62,167 bases of DNA from Chloroflexota bacterium (GCA_039932375.1 JBDTQD010000003.1:1-62167), one strand, 5' to 3'; shown: positions 3,894 to 9,233, counted from the first letter of the stretch. Numbers and translations: made by a program. Notes: generated by a model from the letters alone, not told the origin.

Positions 3894-5228
3894 CTACTGA
3901 GGGCCGCGCCGGCCTTCTAGGCGCGCGCGACGCAGCCGTCCCAGCCGCTCGCCGATCTGCTTCTCGAGGCCCTGATCGGACGGCTCGTAATAGACACGCC
4001 CGGCAAGCGCGTCCGGCAGGTACTGCTGGTCGACATCGGCTTCGTCGAAGTCGTGCGGGTAGAGGTAGCCCTTGCCGTAGCCATGCTCTTTCGCCAGCCG
4101 GCGATGCGACGACGGGCGCAGGTGCAGCGGGACCGGCAGCCGTCCGCGCTCCTCCACATCGGCCAGCGCCGCGAAGTAGGCGCCGCCGGCTCGGTTCGAC
4201 TTCGGCGCGGAGGCAATGTAGGCGGCGGCCTGGGCAAGGGCGTACTGGGCCTCGGGCAGGCCGATCATCTCCACGGCCTGCATGGCAGCCACCGCCACCT
4301 GCAGCGCCCGCGGATCGGCGTTGCCGACGTCCTCGCTGGCCGCGATCACGATCCGCCGCGCGATGAAGGTCGGATCCTCCCCCGCCGCGACCATGCTGGC
4401 GCACCAGTAGAGAGCGGCGTCTGGATCATTGCCCCGCATGCTCTTGATGAAGGCCGATGCCGCCTCGTAGTGCTGGTCGCCGACCCGATCGTAGGCGAGC
4501 AGCCGCTGCTGCGACGCCTCGGCGATGGCCTCGCGGCTGAGCGGCCCGCTCTTCCCGGCCACGGCGGCCGCGGACTCCAGGATATTCAGGGCCTGACGCG
4601 CGTCGCCGCTCGACAGCTCGAGCAGCGCGGTCATCCCCTCCTCGGAGATCGCGACATTGCCGCCCAGCCCGCGCTCGTCGCCAAGCGCGAGGTCCACGAT
4701 CTTCCGCACCGCCTCTTCGCCGAGCGGCTCGAGCCGATAGACCCGCAGGCGCGACAGGAGCGGCGAGTTGATCTCGTAGTACGGGTTCTCGGTGGATGCT
4801 GCAATAAGCCGGATGGTGCCGTCCTCGACGTAGGGCAGCAGCGCATCCTGCTGGGCCTTGTTGAACCTGTGGATCTCGTCAATGAACAGCACGGTCATGA
4901 CCCCAGCGGTCCGTGCCTCTTTGGCCTCGGCGAACAGCTTGCGCAGGTCAGCGACTCCACTGGTCACCGCGCTGATCTGATGCCAGGCACCTCCAGCCCG
5001 CTCTGCGAGCAGCCGGGCGAGCGTCGTCTTCCCTGATCCCGGTGGGCCCCAAAGCATGATGCTAGGCAGGAAACCGGGTTGCACGACACGGGAGAGGGCA
5101 CCGTCCTCACCAACCAGGTGTGTCTGGCCCACGAACTCGGACAGGTCGCGCGAGCGCATTCTTGCGGCGAGCGGTGCGTCGGTTGCCGGCTCCTCCCTGA
5201 ACAGCGGGTCGGTGAGGTTCACGGGCAT
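3894..5228 (-). CDS. rarA: Replication-associated recombination protein A (RarA/MgsA AAA+ ATPase), full length
   Basis: PLAARMR, GPPGSGKTT, FIDEIHRFNKAQQD, ASTENP, GDARQALN, SAFIKSMRGNDPDAALYW, ASEDVGNADP, HGYGKGYLYPHD. Confidence 0.95.
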   Translation of the reverse strand: MPVNLTDPLFREEPATDAPLAARMRSRDLSEFVGQTHLVGEDGALSRVVQPGFLPSIMLWGPPGSGKTTLARLLAERAGGAWHQISAVTSGVADLRKLFAEAKEARTAGVMTVLFIDEIHRFNKAQQDALLPYVEDGTIRLIAASTENPYYEINSPLLSRLRVYRLEPLGEEAVRKIVDLALGDERGLGGNVAISEEGMTALLELSSGDARQALNILESAAAVAGKSGPLSREAIAEASQQRLLAYDRVGDQHYEAASAFIKSMRGNDPDAALYWCASMVAAGEDPTFIARRIVIAASEDVGNADPRALQVAVAAMQAVEMIGLPEAQYALAQAAAYIASAPKSNRAGGAYFAALADVEERGRLPVPLHLRPSSHRRLAKEHGYGKGYLYPHDFDEADVDQQYLPDALAGRVYYEPSDQGLEKQIGERLGRLRRARLEGRRGPQ

Positions 5229-5264
5229 GAACAGCATGATGACTCAGAGAGGATCAGGCGGGGT

Positions 5265-5293
5265 CGCCTGCACGCTACCGATCGCCGCGGCCG
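5265..5293. repeat. Direct repeat copy 1 (cgcctgcacgctaccgatcgccgcggccg)
   Basis: Identical 29-mer at 6053-6081; 25-nt copy with 2 mismatches at 5735-5759. Confidence 0.9.
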
Positions 5294-5409
5294 TCGCCGC
5301 TCGAGCTCTTCGCGCCGTCAACGTCGTTCGGGCCCGACCGCAAGGTGGAAGGACGTCAGCCGCGTAGACTCAGGCGGCGAGGGGTTCCTGATTGAGTGAA
5401 GGAGTCGTG

Positions 5410-5679
5410 ATGGCAACGCTATTCGTTCGACACAAGGTGGCGGCCTATGCGGCTTGGCGGGAGACATACAACGCGTTCGACCCGACCCGGAAGGCGCTCG
5501 GCGTGACGGCCGACGCCGTCTACCAGGCGGCCGATGATCCGAATGAGGTGACGGTGACGCACGACTTCGCGACGCTGGAAGCTGCCAAGGCATTTGTCGC
5601 CAACTCTGAGTTGCACGAGGCGATGGACAAGTCCGGAGTCGTCGGCGAGCCCGCGATCTGGATCACGAACCGGAGTTAG
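5410..5679 (+). CDS. Small dimeric alpha/beta-barrel protein (ABM/'cyclase'-like)
   Basis: MATLFVRHKV..Y.AW...Y...D..RKALGV....VYQ..DDPNEVTV.HDF..LE.AKAF..S.EL..AM...GV.GEP; GGAG at 5401; TAGACT at 5365-5370. Confidence 0.75.
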   Translation: MATLFVRHKVAAYAAWRETYNAFDPTRKALGVTADAVYQAADDPNEVTVTHDFATLEAAKAFVANSELHEAMDKSGVVGEPAIWITNRS

Positions 5680-5734
5680 CCGGGCAGAGATCTCGCGGGC
5701 GGACCGTTCGTGGGGCAGGTCTAAGGCCCGGCGC

Positions 5735-5759
5735 CGCCTGCCCGCTACCGATCGACGCG
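5735..5759. repeat. Direct repeat copy 2 (degenerate)
   Basis: cgcctgcccgctaccgatcgacgcg, overlapping a hairpin cgacgc-gactat-gcgtcg (5753-5770). Confidence 0.8.
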
Positions 5760-6052
5760 ACTATGCGTCGCTTATGTCAGGGCAGTGCGCTGAGCACCTT
5801 GGCCGCGGTTGCAGCATCAGCCGGCAGCACCACGAACAGTGCCTCGCCGTGCGCGTACGGGTACTCGGGTCCGTTGGACCAGCACAGCATCGGGCTGCCA
5901 GTTATCTGGACCACCCCGGCAACGCGCGATGCACGGATTGAGAAGCGCCGCTGGGTTGGCCGTTGAGGCGTCGTGACACGATGATCGGCCAGTTTGCCAC
6001 CGCGATCACATCGTCGCGCGGCGAGTCAGCCAGAGGATGTTGAGGCCGATGC

Positions 6053-6081
6053 CGCCTGCACGCTACCGATCGCCGCGGCCG
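6053..6081. repeat. Direct repeat copy 3
   Basis: Identical to 5265-5293. Confidence 0.9.
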
Positions 6082-6131
6082 CCGGCCCGAGTTGCGCCCG
6101 AAGTTAAACGCGGCTGCGGGTCATGCCATCC

Positions 6132-7724
6132 TCAGCCAGCGCCACCAACAGGCGCCAGGGCAAACAGCTGCCACTCGCCCGGCACACCTTTGAACTTGTG
6201 CCGGCCTCGATCATGCAGCCCGAGATCCCTGCCTGGCAACGCTTCACCCAAGGCCTCAGAGATAAGGATCTCCCCGTCCGCTGCGGAAGCCATGATCCGA
6301 GCTGCCGCGTGCACCTCGATGCCGCTGACCTTTTCGCCCCGCATCTCGCACTCGCCGAGGTGGAGGCCTGTTCGTGTCTGAAGACTGAGCTCATCGACGG
6401 CTACGCGGATCGCCCGCGCGCAGCTAACGCCCGAGCTTGGCTGGTCGAACGTGGCGAAGAAGGCATCGCCCGCTGTATCGACTTCGTGGCCACCCGTCCG
6501 CGCGAGCTCCTTGCGGACGGCCGCGCGATAGCGGCCGAGAAGCATCCGCCAGCGCTCATCGCCCAGCTCGACGATGCGCTCGGTGGAGCCCACGATATCG
6601 GTGAACAGCAGGGTCAGCAGTGCCCGACCCGGCAGGAGGCGATCGACGACCGGGCGCACGCGTCGACGCATCGGTCCGTACGCCACCGCCACCCCAACGC
6701 CCAGCGCACCAGTCAGTAATTCGGACCGCTGTCCGGTGAGCGACTCCAGCATCCGCTGCAAGCCGATGTTGGCGACGCCAAAGGCGGCCAGCAGCACAAC
6801 CGTGACGCTGCCGTCGAGAACGGTGCGGTTGATGATCGTGTCGATCTCGTAGAGGCGGTAACGCAGCACCGCCACCCCGATGGCGAGCGGGACGGTTGGA
6901 AACGCGATGACCGCTGGAATCCAGACCAGCTCGCTTGTTCCTGCGGCTGGCAGCAGCCGTCCGACCACGAAGCCGCCCAGCACAGCGATGACCACAAAGG
7001 CCAGGGCGGCGGCCACCCAACTGAGCTGCTGGCGCTCGATGCCCCGTGCACGTCGCAGGCGCACGATGATCGAGACGACGCCAAGGGCCAGCAGGGCTGC
7101 GAGAAGCGGGAACCCGGCTCCGGTGATGGTTTCCCAGATCGGAGCAGCCGGGAAGATGGCGAGGGGGTTCGCGATGTCCACGCCAGCTTGTGATTGCGAG
7201 AGGCTCACGTTCAGGGTCGGACCAAAGGCGTTGAGAATGACGGCCACGCACGCGAGGCCAATCGCCACACGAGCCGGCGTCTCCCACCTTCCGTGGGGCA
7301 GCCGCCCGCTCGGAAACACGATCAGCAGGATGAAAAGAAGCGTGAACGCTGGCAGGCCGCCGAGGGCGCCGCTCGCGATTGCCATGGCTTCGGTCGCGAG
7401 GGGTACGGTCCTGGTCGCGAACTGCGCGGGGGTCGCATCCACGCTGGCTAAAGCAAGCGCGAAACACCAGCCAATCGCGAACAGGATCCAGCCAATCGAG
7501 TTCCTTGGCCTCCGCACAACGAGGATGCAGGCAACCAGTGTGTAGGGGACGTAGATCAGAATCCCGGGGGGGCTCTGCACTGCGATGACTAGCCCCAAGA
7601 AGGCGGCCACCGCCACCGCCGCCTGCGCGACGCGGGGCAGCGAGGGCGTGATCACGAGGCTGTCCGGCGCGGCGCGCTCGGTCAGGGAAGCACCATTCCG
7701 CCTCATCCGCTCATCCGCGCCCAT
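6132..7724 (-). CDS. Membrane-bound class III adenylate/guanylate cyclase
   Basis: Multi-TM N-terminal region (..RRARGIERQQLSW.., YRLYEID); C-terminal FTDIVGST, DTAGDAFF, RTGLHLGE, GIEVHAAARI. Confidence 0.85.
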   Translation of the reverse strand: MGADERMRRNGASLTERAAPDSLVITPSLPRVAQAAVAVAAFLGLVIAVQSPPGILIYVPYTLVACILVVRRPRNSIGWILFAIGWCFALALASVDATPAQFATRTVPLATEAMAIASGALGGLPAFTLLFILLIVFPSGRLPHGRWETPARVAIGLACVAVILNAFGPTLNVSLSQSQAGVDIANPLAIFPAAPIWETITGAGFPLLAALLALGVVSIIVRLRRARGIERQQLSWVAAALAFVVIAVLGGFVVGRLLPAAGTSELVWIPAVIAFPTVPLAIGVAVLRYRLYEIDTIINRTVLDGSVTVVLLAAFGVANIGLQRMLESLTGQRSELLTGALGVGVAVAYGPMRRRVRPVVDRLLPGRALLTLLFTDIVGSTERIVELGDERWRMLLGRYRAAVRKELARTGGHEVDTAGDAFFATFDQPSSGVSCARAIRVAVDELSLQTRTGLHLGECEMRGEKVSGIEVHAAARIMASAADGEILISEALGEALPGRDLGLHDRGRHKFKGVPGEWQLFALAPVGGAG

Positions 7725-8038
7725 GACGTTGACTCCAGGGCGCGGATATCGGCGACGCCGCTGGTGACGGCAGAGATCGGACGCCAGGTGCCACCCGACC
7801 GATCTGCGAGGAGGCGAGCCAGGGTCGTCTTGCCCGAGCCGGGCGGCCCCCACAGCACCATGCTCGGCGCAAACCCGGGCTGCACCACCTTGGTCAGGGC
7901 GCCATCGGGCCCCACCAGGTGCTCCTGGCCGATGAACTCCTCCAGGGTGCGGGGCCGCATTCGGGCCGCGAGCGGCGCATCGCTCGCCGGCCGGTCGGCG
8001 AAGAGGGGCTCGGTGACGGTCGGCGGCTTACGCGGCAT
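7703..8038 (-). pseudogene. rarA: Truncated 5' fragment of rarA (about 100 codons)
   Basis: MPRKPPTVTEPLF...PLAARMRPRTLEEFIGQEHLVG...GPPGSGKTTLARLLA...ISAVTSGVADIR, after which homology ends at about 7742 and a stop follows. Confidence 0.9.
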
Positions 8039-8072
8039 CGGTCCGTTCCATCGGCCGATTATGATGCCCGCC

Positions 8073-9233
8073 ATGGACCAGAACCTGCGCGTCCCCGGGC
8101 CAACGCCCCTCCCCGACGAGGTGCGAGAGGCGCAATCGGCGCCGATGATCGACCACCGCGGCACCGAGTTCGGCGAGATGCTGCGCGAGATCACAACCGG
8201 GATTGCCGAGCTGATCGGAACGCGCGGCGAGGTCCTGCTGCTGACGGGCTCGGGGTCGGGAGCGCTCGAGGCCGCCGTGGTCAACACCCTCTCGCCGGGT
8301 GACCGTGCCCTGGTCGTCACCATCGGCGCATTTGGCGATCGGTTCGCTAAGATCGCCTCCGCCTTCGGGGCCGATGTCGAGCGCTTCGAGGCGCCATGGG
8401 GCCACGCCGCGGACCCCACCGCGCTGCGTGAGCACCTGGCGGCGAATCCCCCATACCGCGCCGTGCTGGTGACGCATAACGAGACCTCGACGGGGGTGAC
8501 CAACCCGCTGCGCGAGCTCGCTGGCGTCGTTCACGGCGCTCCCGGGAAGCCGCTGCTGGTGGTCGACGGCATCAGCGGGCTCGGGGCGATGCCCTTCGAG
8601 ATGGACGCGTGGGGAATCGACCTGGTGGTGAGCGCATCCCAGAAGGCCTGGATGGGATCGCCCGGAATCGCCATCGCGGCGGTCGGAGCGCGCGCCTGGG
8701 GCGCGGCCGAGACGGCCCGTATGCCGCGCGTCTACTGGGATTTCGCCGAGGCGCGCAAGTGGGCGGAGAAGGGCCAGACGCCGTGGACCCCGGCGGTCAG
8801 CGTCCTGTACGGCTTGCGGGTCGGCGTGCGGCGCCTCGTGGCCGAGGGGCGCGAGCGCACATGGGCGAGGCATGCGGCCATCGCCGCGGCGGTGCAGGCC
8901 GGCCTCGAGGGGCTCGGCCTCGAGCTTGTGGCGGCACCTGAAGATCGCTCCATCACGGTGACTGCGGCCTGGCTGCCAGGCGGCCTGGAGTGGGGGCCGT
9001 TCAACGCCGCCATGCGCGGCAAGGGGCTGATCGTGGCCGGCGGCCAGGGGGCGTGGGTGGGCCGCATCCTGCGCTTCGGCCACATGGGCGGGGTGGGGAT
9101 CGACGAGATGTGCGACGCGATGCGCGTGATGGGCGAGACGCTCAACGAGTTGGGGCGTCCAGCGGATACCGCCGCCGCGGTGCGGGCCATGAAGGGGATC
9201 TTCGAAGCGAGGTTGGCCGCCGCCGTCGGCTGA
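8073..9233 (+). CDS. Class V PLP aminotransferase (alanine-glyoxylate/serine-pyruvate family)
   Basis: PGPTP, HNETSTGV, VVDGISG, SASQKAW (PLP Lys), RFGHMG; TATGAT at 8060-8065 suggests a leaderless start at 8073. Confidence 0.9.
   Translation: MDQNLRVPGPTPLPDEVREAQSAPMIDHRGTEFGEMLREITTGIAELIGTRGEVLLLTGSGSGALEAAVVNTLSPGDRALVVTIGAFGDRFAKIASAFGADVERFEAPWGHAADPTALREHLAANPPYRAVLVTHNETSTGVTNPLRELAGVVHGAPGKPLLVVDGISGLGAMPFEMDAWGIDLVVSASQKAWMGSPGIAIAAVGARAWGAAETARMPRVYWDFAEARKWAEKGQTPWTPAVSVLYGLRVGVRRLVAEGRERTWARHAAIAAAVQAGLEGLGLELVAAPEDRSITVTAAWLPGGLEWGPFNAAMRGKGLIVAGGQGAWVGRILRFGHMGGVGIDEMCDAMRVMGETLNELGRPADTAAAVRAMKGIFEARLAAAVG

Follow-up and report, generated by a model that had tools for sequence, protein, structure and literature searches.

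A 3.3-kb block of foreign DNA, made up of two cargo genes and a foreign rarA start, sits at the rarA locus of an uncultured Limnocylindria bacterium, where the first 101 codons of the resident gene have been displaced. The genome (G000; relatives are likewise referred to by number) is metagenome-assembled, 90% complete and comprises 133 contigs, and the window analysed is a stretch of 62,167 nt. Judged from the sequence features described below, the block probably came from another Limnocylindria lineage and would have entered through rarA itself by homology-facilitated illegitimate recombination (HFIR).

Two 5' ends at the rarA locus

A class V aminotransferase gene (8073..9233, plus strand; Pfam), which is the conserved divergent neighbour of rarA in synteny across the family, is followed on its other side by an orphan rarA 5' end, then by the cargo, and 2.5 kb further on by a complete rarA. 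The ATGs of the aminotransferase gene and the orphan are 34 nt apart. A -10-like motif, CATAAT (8058..8063, minus strand), lies 19 nt upstream of the orphan ATG, where the initial annotation had placed it, and the same stretch is also kept upstream of rarA in relatives with an undisturbed site. A simple consensus promoter scan made no call at 8063-8058, and the motif is regarded here as a putative promoter.

The orphan (7735..8038, minus strand) comprises codons 1-101 of an A-type rarA, as assigned by BLASTP against the full copy and by its position in the 5' tree. Its ATG is at 8038-8036, and rarA homology, which had been read as ending at about 7742, runs to 7735, i.e., codon 101 plus one base (...SAVTSGVADIRAL); the reading frame continues into the insert as far as a stop at 7703. 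Between the orphan and the full copy, amino acid identity is 73% over 97 residues (BLASTP, E 8e-50) and nucleotide identity is about 72%. The 5' ends of relatives with an empty site are 85-94% identical to the orphan versus approximately 70-77% to the 5' end of the full copy. The orphan is rarA's original 5' end. Its dN/dS is 0.09-0.13, equal to that between intact genes, and its GC3 is 88%.

The full rarA (3894-5237, minus strand) encodes 447 aa and has all its domains (RuvB_N/AAA, AAA_assoc_2 and MgsA_C), the target gene being completed by a foreign segment of approximately 150 codons. Trees, sliding identity and a GC3 of 76% mark codons 1 to ~150 (4788..5237, minus strand) as a foreign, B-type part, while identity to G003 and G004 and the tree mark the stretch from ~codon 150 to the stop (3894..4787, minus strand) as native. 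The impression, gained by eye in the initial annotation, that the 5' part is richer in A/T third positions proved right, with a GC3 of 76% for codons 1-100 against 86-91% beyond them. Codons 1-108 together with 58 nt upstream are 96-98% identical to G017, which is another species; this common module spans -58 to about +325, with 80-87% identity elsewhere, and its one exception is codons 52-72, a divergent patch that agrees with the orphan of G017 itself. For codons 108-150 the closest match is G054, from another genus. Between G000 and G017, dS is 0.18 in the 5' module and 0.67 in the rest, and the two genomes fall in different sub-clades of the aminotransferase gene tree. Such near-identity of the 5' module and its leader across two species points to recent horizontal spread.

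The native 3' part is nearest to G003 and G004. Nucleotide identity to them peaks at 93-96% (30-codon windows within codons 231-300), and amino acid identity over residues 201-445 is 92-93%. Separate phylogenies of the two parts, the check proposed at the outset, are discordant rather than homogeneous: in the tree of residues 1-100 the full copy groups with the full copy of G017 (99/95) within clade B (98/93), and the orphan falls in clade A, while in the tree of residues 201-445 the full copy is sister to G003, within the group that holds the A-type genomes. The full rarA is thus, as had been suggested, a chimera of a foreign 5' part and a native remainder. The switch lies at about codon 150, within the near-invariant block ENPYYEINSPLLSRLRVY, and no A-type copy of codons 102-150 is left at the locus. 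Since the foreign stretch extends beyond the end of the orphan, resident codons 102 to ~150 are missing, not duplicated.

Two simple origins for this arrangement can be judged on the same evidence. Local duplication of the rarA 5' end, with divergence of one copy and insertion of unrelated genes between, would account for the presence of the same ~100 codons twice on one strand, at a distance of 2.5 kb. It is refuted by the trees and scarcely credible, because the two copies fall into separate clades with good support and each resembles genes of other genomes far more than it resembles its partner, the 5' end of the full copy is nearly that of another species (96-98%), and the orphan is free of relaxed constraint. 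An assembly chimera joining two strains or species of the metagenome might be suspected in a genome of 133 contigs, but it is extremely unlikely, given that a second, independent assembly (GCA_040004435.1, contig JBDUAW010000002.1) has the identical layout at 99.75% identity, with 31 SNPs over 12,576 nt and no indels. Moreover, the contig sequence to the left and right of the insert is colinear with that of relatives, the orphan/cyclase joint holds no repeated sequence that could mislead an assembler, and the same architecture is present in G017, G054 and G102, of which one or more derive from an assembly submitted separately. SNP density between the two strains sharing the insert is 11-13 per kb in the native rarA pieces, 0.7 per kb in the cargo and foreign 5' end, and 1-2 per kb in the outer flanks; such a pattern, with its pile-up in the native pieces, would be expected from recombination through the flanks.

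Empty and occupied sites in relatives

An empty site, with TgpA, the aminotransferase gene and rarA in order and no insert, is present in at least 13 genomes of the same genus, or in about 16 if G041, G043 and G044, for which only one A-type copy each was observed, are counted. The search for empty-site alleles in close relatives was therefore successful, as in most of them the aminotransferase gene is directly divergent from rarA.

Displaced 5' ends occur in five genomes spanning three genera, and each orphan stops at a different point, i.e., at about codon 75 (G102), 84 (G017), 101 (G000), 125 (G054) and 150 (G020). The cargo varies as well, with 2.5 kb in G000, 11 kb in G017 and other genes in G020, G054 and G102. 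In G017, the orphan stops at codon 84 and the foreign part reaches ~125; judged by eye, the full copies of G054 (orphan to 125) and G102 (orphan to ~75) are of non-A type through at least codon ~150 and ~165, respectively. Left joints scatter over approximately 500 nt among genomes, being, besides the five orphan ends, intergenic in G012, G015, G014 and G023 and at codon 6 in G011 and in the metagenome contig L173, where the 5' end has been replaced with almost no cargo (~85 nt). A survey of recombinases at these loci, also proposed initially, covered the cargo of G000, G017, G054 and G102 and found none; for G017 it used Pfam on 15 larger ORFs from the 11-kb cargo, and the G054 and G102 ORFs were read by eye only.

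Cargo genes and the 81-nt repeat

The first cargo gene (6132..7724, minus strand) encodes a 530-aa membrane protein with a C-terminal class III nucleotidyl cyclase domain (Pfam Guanylate_cyc, E 1.5e-6), belonging to a family with many paralogues; within the genus, identity to its best match reaches only 52%. The left joint maps at 7735/7734, and the cyclase ATG is 10 nt past it, preceded at 8 nt by a GGAG (7736-7733) that spans the joint. An alternative ATG at 7706 overlaps the TGA of the orphan frame as ATGA, and the gene caller of the other assembly picked this 524-aa form with its 4-nt overlap. Starting so close behind the joint, the cyclase gene now stands behind the old, putative rarA promoter. 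The second cargo gene (5410..5679, plus strand) encodes an ABM/Dabb-like small protein of 89 aa (Pfam ABM, E 1.9e-4, just below the cut-off), has AGGAG 5 nt before its ATG, and is annotated with the same length of 89 aa in the independent assembly. A decayed reading-frame piece (5777..6025, minus strand; read by eye only) is protein-like in its C-terminal part. No recombinase was found in the window cargo, by Pfam for the cyclase and ABM proteins and by eye only for the leftover frames, in agreement with the initial description of a membrane cyclase, a small barrel protein and decayed pieces with no integrase.

An 81-nt repeat, which is confined to one genus and present there genus-wide, cuts the cargo into units. 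Copy R1 (5255..5330, plus strand; consensus positions 5-71) is antisense to the full rarA and situated 21 nt upstream of that gene, and the left arm of R1 belongs to the module common to G000 and G017. R2 (5729..5766, plus strand) was recognised by its match to the repeat as a degenerate left arm, which the 3' end of the decayed piece abuts, and R3 (6046..6084, plus strand) is a left arm only, exact over consensus positions 11-39. Structurally, the arms of the repeat are conserved, its centre varies and its ends form a 10-nt inverted repeat, and many copies consist of only the left or only the right arm. The window copies fold no better than shuffled sequence (z -0.9 to +1.7), full-length copies form only an 8-10 bp terminal stem, and the repeat has no Rfam match.

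The repeat could be the recombination site of a cassette system, integron-like in logic though not an integron, with cassettes added beside the copy 21 nt upstream of the B-type rarA, and the array with its rarA 5' end then moving between species via recombination in rarA. Several observations fit: in G000, G017 and G020, gene-sized units are bounded by the repeat, whose orientation relative to rarA is the same throughout; conservation of the repeat is 93-97% even between species with about 20% difference in their genes; one genome contains as many as 32 copies, often in clusters; and left-arm remnants lie just upstream of the B-type rarA in G011 and G023. Gene-sized units between conserved two-armed repeats with a variable centre and terminal inverted repeats, in one orientation per array, are features shared with integrons and with CALINs, attC clusters that lack an integrase. 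Unlike in those systems, IntI was not found, the R''/R' boxes of attC (RYYYAAC ... GTTRRRY) are absent from the repeat ends by inspection, the window copies form no hairpin beyond that of shuffles, the genes of the units at rarA point in both directions, and the repeat does not extend beyond its genus. Nor is any recombinase consistently beside the arrays: four tyrosine recombinases near repeat clusters in relatives, none of them in or near the rarA locus, score 29-60 bits against TIGR02249 (cut-off 265) and better as XerC/D-like. No repeat was detected in the cargo of G054 and G102 despite the same displacement of rarA, and a cassette origin is on balance unlikely.

A site-specific island was the initial reading, in which rarA served as the integration site of a decayed or non-autonomous element. 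It may be formulated as integration at a fixed site in the rarA 5' end by an element that carried a replacement 5' end and has since lost its integrase, with orphans eroded unequally afterwards. Hochhut and Waldor reportedly described in 1999 that SXT restores prfC with a new promoter and 5' coding sequence. SXT/R391 elements integrate in the 5' end of prfC (PMC2791158). The rarA locus resembles this precedent in that insertion takes place in the 5' part of a conserved gene, which is kept functional through a leader and 5' end of foreign origin. The module common to G000 and G017 also stops close to codon 108, within about 20 nt of the end of the G000 orphan, and the site was used repeatedly with variable cargo. 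However, SXT has a tyrosine integrase, an attP/attB near-identical core and one exact joint, none of which was found at rarA. Between the orphan end (GCCGATATCCGCGCCCTGG|AG) and the corresponding site of the full copy (GCTGACCTGCGCAAGCTGTTC) there is no identical run longer than 5 nt, i.e., no core common to the two junctions, the orphans of five genomes end at five different points, the foreign allele continues 40-50 codons beyond the orphan end, none of the four cargo sets holds a detectable recombinase, even the 11-kb one, and the 5' end is replaced in L173 with hardly any cargo. The G000 genome has only two tyrosine recombinases (PF00589), on contigs C71 and C23 and not on the window contig; both are of the class that every one of the eight searched genomes contains once each and are, by inference, Xer-like. 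A role of the rarA 5' region as a recurrent entry point with variable cargo (G000, G017, G020, G054 and G102) is supported, but a site-specific island is improbable.

Probable entry through rarA by HFIR

HFIR, in which linear DNA is anchored by homology at one end and joined illegitimately a short way off at the other, has been proposed elsewhere for arrays of displaced orphan genes and is rare in experiments (PMC5361080). According to statements in PMC3240628, it has been shown experimentally in several species, and the primary papers, as given in PMC5361080, are de Vries & Wackernagel 2002, Prudhomme et al. 2002 and Meier & Wackernagel 2003. At rarA, one boundary lies in homologous sequence (the mosaic switch at ~codon 150) and the other is non-homologous and nearby (the joint, which in gene coordinates precedes the crossover by ~150 nt). 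A microhomology of a few bases at the illegitimate joint is a hallmark of HFIR; the donor sequence upstream of the cyclase gene is absent from all collections searched, and no match in metagenome contigs was obtained with a 23-nt word taken from the imported 5' end.

From the observed mosaic, empty sites and break points we infer the mechanism, linear DNA uptake as its route and the consequences for expression. The incoming block would have comprised the genes for the cyclase and the ABM protein, leftovers bounded by repeat copies, and a rarA leader of B type with the first ~150 codons. Its right-hand end would have recombined homologously within the ENPYYEINSPLLSRLRVY block at ~codon 150, and its left-hand end would have been joined without homology to the resident gene after codon 101, with loss of resident codons 102 to ~150 and stranding of the promoter and first 101 codons as an orphan. 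Foreign codons 1 to ~150 and the native remainder would make up the rebuilt rarA, which would depend on the imported leader. As a by-product, the cyclase gene may have been placed behind the old rarA promoter, with the GGAG straddling the joint and the stop and ATG overlapping as ATGA. Homologues of ComEC (contig C48) and DprA (C23) are present in G000 and also in most control genomes, and are therefore only permissive for the uptake of linear DNA.

The locus shares with HFIR the homologous end, the nearby non-homologous joint, the loss of resident DNA between them and the trapping of foreign genes, and neither a recombinase nor an att site is needed. It differs in that HFIR is known from laboratory selections, while here it is deduced from natural genomes and recurs at one housekeeping gene across three genera. 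A process rare in experiments, yet with at least five events here, calls for a real hot spot or some helper. The conserved repeat that punctuates the cargo, with its many half-copies, may point to a dedicated recombination activity, which HFIR would not require, and originally uniform orphans could have been shortened by later deletions.

Displacement arrays of Rhs, CDI and T6SS effectors, which contain orphan toxin/immunity modules and for which HFIR was proposed, likewise use a conserved gene segment as anchor, leave the old end as an orphan once a new module has displaced it and are built by repeated events (PMC5361080). There, the variable 3' end of a polymorphic toxin under diversifying selection is displaced, whereas at the rarA locus it is the 5' end of a DNA-maintenance ATPase, with cargo (cyclases, transporters and enzymes) unrelated to the gene. 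The same process that is proposed for G000, or the later spread of its products by ordinary recombination in the flanks, would have acted repeatedly at rarA in this family.

Layout of the rarA locus and soundness of the assembly

The source genome is a 1.84-Mb metagenome-assembled genome of Candidatus Limnocylindria (Chloroflexota) in 133 contigs, of which the window is contig C3. A class V aminotransferase gene with its start at 8073 diverges from a native rarA 5' fragment (the orphan), whose ATG lies at 8038 on the minus strand, 34 nt from that of the aminotransferase gene and downstream of a conserved CATAAT (8063-8058, minus). The orphan runs for 101 codons ending in SAVTSGVADIRAL and gives way to cargo between 7735 and 7734 (minus), the sequence at this joint being AGTCAACGTC. 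The cargo comprises the gene of a membrane protein (530 aa) that bears a class III cyclase domain (ATG 7724, end 6132, minus), a left-arm copy of a repeat (6046-6084), a decayed reading-frame piece (5777-6025) that separates this copy from a second, degenerate one (5729-5766), an 89-aa ABM-like gene on the strand opposite to rarA (5410-5679), and a near-complete repeat copy (5255-5330), from which 21 nt lead to the ATG of a complete, 447-aa rarA, the full copy (ATG 5237, end 3894, minus). The orphan and the 5' stretch of the full copy share 73% protein identity (E 8e-50) and about 72% DNA identity, and GC3 is 76% in codons 1-100 of the full copy, compared with 86-91% in its remainder and 88% in the orphan. 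The initial annotation had described this arrangement and had suspected, by eye, a lower GC3 in the 5' part of the full copy; rechecking of its layout, coordinates and the two rarA 5' stretches found all of its sequence statements correct.

At the joint itself, the cyclase ATG lies 10 nt beyond the break, a GGAG is created across it 8 nt ahead of that ATG, and the TGA of the orphan frame overlaps a second cyclase ATG as ATGA. Judged from these features, the cyclase gene would in effect have captured the old, putative rarA promoter, and the rebuilt rarA would have to rely on its imported leader, in which no consensus promoter was detected.

An assembly artefact might have produced the orphan and full-copy layout, but contig JBDUAW010000002.1 (19.2 kb) of a separate assembly, GCA_040004435.1, has the same gene order, namely DUF58, TgpA, aminotransferase, a 111-aa orphan frame, cyclase, ABM, rarA and a BNR protein; its gap-free alignment with the window spans 12,576 nt and contains 31 mismatches. 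Also against the artefact, the window contig and its relatives are colinear both left and right of the insert, and the orphan/cyclase joint holds no repeat able to mislead an assembler. An exact look-up of the 447-aa rarA protein returned no record, and that of a 444-aa form retrieved the second assembly.

Separate origins of the two ends of rarA

An empty site, in which TgpA, the aminotransferase gene and rarA follow one another with nothing between, is present in at least 13 genomes of the same genus (G003, G004, G005, G007, G008, G009, G010, G016, G018, G019, G021, G022 and G024); three more (G041, G043 and G044) have one native-type rarA copy each and may share this site. The rarA 5' ends of the empty-site genomes are 85-94% identical to the core of the orphan and only 74-77% identical to the 5' end of the full copy. 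Maximum-likelihood trees were built separately for two segments of the protein. With residues 1-100, the full copy pairs with that of another species, G017 (support 99/95), and the pair falls within a clade of foreign, B-type 5' alleles together with G011, G012, G015 and G023 (98/93), whereas the orphans of the source genome, G017 and G020 fall in the native, A-type clade alongside the empty-site genomes. With residues 201-445, the full copy is sister to empty-site genome G003, in a group holding A-type genomes. By sliding identity, foreign sequence changes to native at about codon 150, where the near-invariant ENPYYEINSPLLSRLRVY block starts. The full rarA is therefore chimeric, as the initial annotation had proposed from the sequence, and the empty-site allele and separate phylogenies it had called for were both obtained.

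Its further proposal of a replacement 5' end is borne out as well. Codons 1-108, together with the 58 nt upstream that cover the leader and the repeat's left arm, are 96-98% identical to G017, compared with 80-87% for the rest of the gene, and dS between the two is 0.18 in this shared 5' module and 0.67 in the rest of rarA. Because the aminotransferase gene places the source genome and G017 in different sub-clades, the module is common to them horizontally and not by descent. The one exception within it is a divergent patch at codons 52-72, where the G017 version matches the orphan of G017 itself. This patch of about 60 nt lies around the P-loop of the G017 full copy (L021, G017:C73; the G017 orphan is at L021:16966-17199), and it looks like gene conversion between orphan and full copy inside one genome. 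For codons 108-150 of the full copy, the nearest sequence is the full copy of G054, from another genus, with which it shares the unusual motif GTIRL(I/V)AAST. The dN/dS of the orphan against intact genes is 0.09-0.13, within the range seen among intact genes; since it shows no relaxed constraint, either the split is recent on the scale of species divergence, or selection still acts on the fragment.

The same arrangement of orphan, cargo and full copy was found in three other genomes with differing cargo, which upholds the reading of rarA as a recurrent entry site. In G017 the orphan ends at codon 84 and is followed by an 11-kb cargo encoding a cyclase fragment, an FAD mono-oxygenase, a two-component system and an ABC transporter; in G054 it ends at about codon 125, before 1.8 kb with a soluble cyclase; and in G102, which represents a third genus, the orphan is frameshifted and breaks off at about codon 75, before 4.2 kb with a cyclase-STAND protein. 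In G020, rarA breaks at codon 150 and continues into repeat-bearing DNA, and the remainder of the gene begins another contig. G011 and Logan contig L173 have a B-type 5' end with the A-type gene reduced to its first ~6 codons, the insert in L173 being just ~85 nt. In G012, G015 and G014, which have the B-type class of 5' end, the break is intergenic with an insert of 0.9-1 kb, and in G023 about 116 nt separate a B-type rarA from the aminotransferase gene, the break again being intergenic and a large insert absent. Some B-type alleles on metagenome contigs directly adjoin the aminotransferase gene. An exact 23-nt word from the imported 5' end had no match in metagenome contigs. None of 80 distant metagenome rarA loci had a 5' orphan; all are at most 65% identical, so they are uninformative for this genus.

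Several further observations concern these loci. Every cargo set (source genome, G017, G054, G102) includes a gene with a class III cyclase domain, as does the DNA immediately downstream of rarA in G023 (window 6132-7724; L021:5910-6659; L157:2197-2991; L165:1980-4997; L029:2545-3024). Orthology of the cyclases in the four sets was rejected, as they are 27-50% identical and represent different family members. The G017 orphan forms an in-frame fusion with the last ~24 codons of an apparent alpha/beta hydrolase (…GHIAWLEQP…, L021:16886-16966), and in G012 (L026:7715-8563) and G015 an entire alpha/beta hydrolase gene separates the aminotransferase gene from rarA, which suggests an older shared insert that may have been cut down afterwards in G017. 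Two loci, L159 (G090:C7) and L164 (G170:C6), have rarA in several broken frames, either as a pseudogene or through assembly errors. At a distant metagenome locus (L090:13032-13376), a duplicated rarA 3' fragment (residues 333-442) lies 1.7 kb downstream of the full gene, in mirror image to the 5' orphans described above.

The 81-nt repeat

The three direct repeats in the insert are members of an 81-nt family, TAGGGCCGGGGTCGCCTGCACGCTACCGATCGCCGCGGCCGTCGCCGCTCGAGCTCTTCGCGCCGTCAACGTCRCCCCGGCCC, whose ends form a 10-nt terminal inverted repeat and whose arms are conserved around a variable centre. It was found in 27 of 29 genomes from the genus, at up to 32 copies per genome (G017), and the copies are frequently clustered or at contig ends, many consisting of the left or the right arm only. 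Elsewhere in the source genome they occur at C1:39413-39480, C44:11229-11297, C42:8612-8663, C9:16758-16787 and C20:24635-24669. Stronger matches between species reach 93-97% identity, while ordinary genes of the same species differ by ~20%. In the cargo of the source genome, G017 and G020 the repeat splits the DNA into gene-sized units in one constant orientation relative to rarA. Cyclase genes also share contigs with repeat copies, a few hundred nt to 2 kb away (G017:C55, G043:C2, G015:C158).

The insert and three loci with full-length repeats gave no Rfam match for the repeat. An attC-like hairpin was rejected for the three window copies, whose folding energies as single-stranded DNA, on both strands, were no better than those of shuffles; full-length copies fold to a short terminal stem only. 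An integron integrase was likewise rejected, the recombinases near repeat clusters being generic XerC/D-like and none of IntI type. The idea that the repeat starts at the stop codon of an upstream gene was dropped: the TAG or TAA before many copies seems to be the repeat's own, because the open frames upstream are mostly short. Other displaced gene ends were sought with a tblastx self-comparison of repeat-rich loci, in which compositional noise hid any signal. Two contigs, L060 (CAZHZI010000077.1) and L064 (JBGPHP010000170.1), from metagenome-assembled genomes labelled Conexibacteraceae and Gemmatimonadota, also contain the exact 24-nt repeat core, which reflects either mis-binned Limnocylindria DNA or spread across phyla. 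As well, a match to the c-di-GMP-II-GAG riboswitch model lies ~200 nt from a right-arm copy (L041:5080-5183; G012:C7, about 101,080-101,183), below the gathering threshold (34.5 bits against 40, E 0.0014).

Mechanism of displacement and its meaning

A decayed or non-autonomous island integrated site-specifically at rarA, as the initial annotation had inferred, leads to four predictions, namely a core sequence shared by the two junctions, a constant joint, a recombinase in the cargo, and a gene restored by an imported segment. The last is what the locus shows, and the other three fail. No shared core was found at the two junctions; the joints vary among occurrences, with orphans ending at codon ~75, 84, 101, ~125 or 150; and no recombinase was found in any of the four cargo sets (source genome, G017, G054, G102), by Pfam or by eye. 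The whole source genome has only two tyrosine recombinases, of a class found once each in 8 of 8 genomes searched. A Campbell-type single crossover, in which a circle brings in a rarA fragment, was also rejected, because the orphan should then run past the crossover and end donor-type, and no genome shows such an orphan. A role of the 81-nt repeat in cassette capture is improbable. Its fullest form, scarcely to be expected, would make the repeat the site of an undescribed Limnocylindria cassette-capture system without an IntI-type integrase, with its primary insertion point directly upstream of one rarA allele class and the rarA 5' end serving as a portable homology arm that moves whole arrays between species and genera. 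Since no copy was detected in the cargo of G054 and G102, the repeat is not required for rarA displacement.

The geometry of the locus is rather that expected of homology-facilitated illegitimate recombination (HFIR), a moderately probable explanation in which one-sided homologous recombination in rarA would displace the 5' end of the gene, and the incoming DNA would be joined illegitimately at the left. The left joints are spread over ~500 nt just upstream of the conserved rarA core. In the source genome and G017 the foreign allele of the full copy reaches further than the end of the orphan, and the resident DNA between joint and crossover is therefore missing. By eye, the full copies of G054 and G102 look non-A type well beyond the end of the orphan, and no native-type stretch was identified in them. 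HFIR has been demonstrated experimentally in several bacteria (PMC3240628), and PMC5361080 proposes it for the orphan arrays of T6SS and Rhs loci. One-sided homologous recombination that displaces the end of a gene is of a known kind; compared with those arrays, rarA is a mirror image, because the 5' end is the one displaced, and a housekeeping gene is involved. ComEC and DprA are present in the genome, although they are too widespread to carry much weight.

Once formed, an island could spread through ordinary recombination in its flanks. Of the 31 SNPs between the two strains sharing the island, the 1.2 kb of native rarA on the two sides of the insert contains 14, and the 3.3 kb of cargo and foreign 5' end only 2. 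In the comparison of the window with L172, the locus of the second strain, the native rarA pieces (3894-4787 and 7735-8038) carry 11-13 SNPs per kb, against 0.7 per kb for the cargo and foreign 5' end and 1-2 per kb for the outer flanks. The pile-up is a recombination footprint at the island borders.

Overall, the chimeric gene, the replacement 5' end and the recurrent entry site are real, and the locus is not a site-specific island. An orphan fragment beside a restored gene is usually taken as an integrase footprint, which it is not at rarA, and annotation should be cautious on this point. The repeat that divides the cargo into units and the recurring cyclase-domain genes are leads in their own right. 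The rarA locus provides a clean natural record of a housekeeping gene acting as a homology anchor that admits unrelated genes without mobile-element machinery, and rarA stays intact because the incoming DNA supplies its own 5' end. With at least five separate occurrences with differing joints in three genera, and one 5' module nearly unchanged in two species, the recurrence and the shared module suggest that this route is important to gene flow in an uncultured lineage that is widespread in soil and freshwater.
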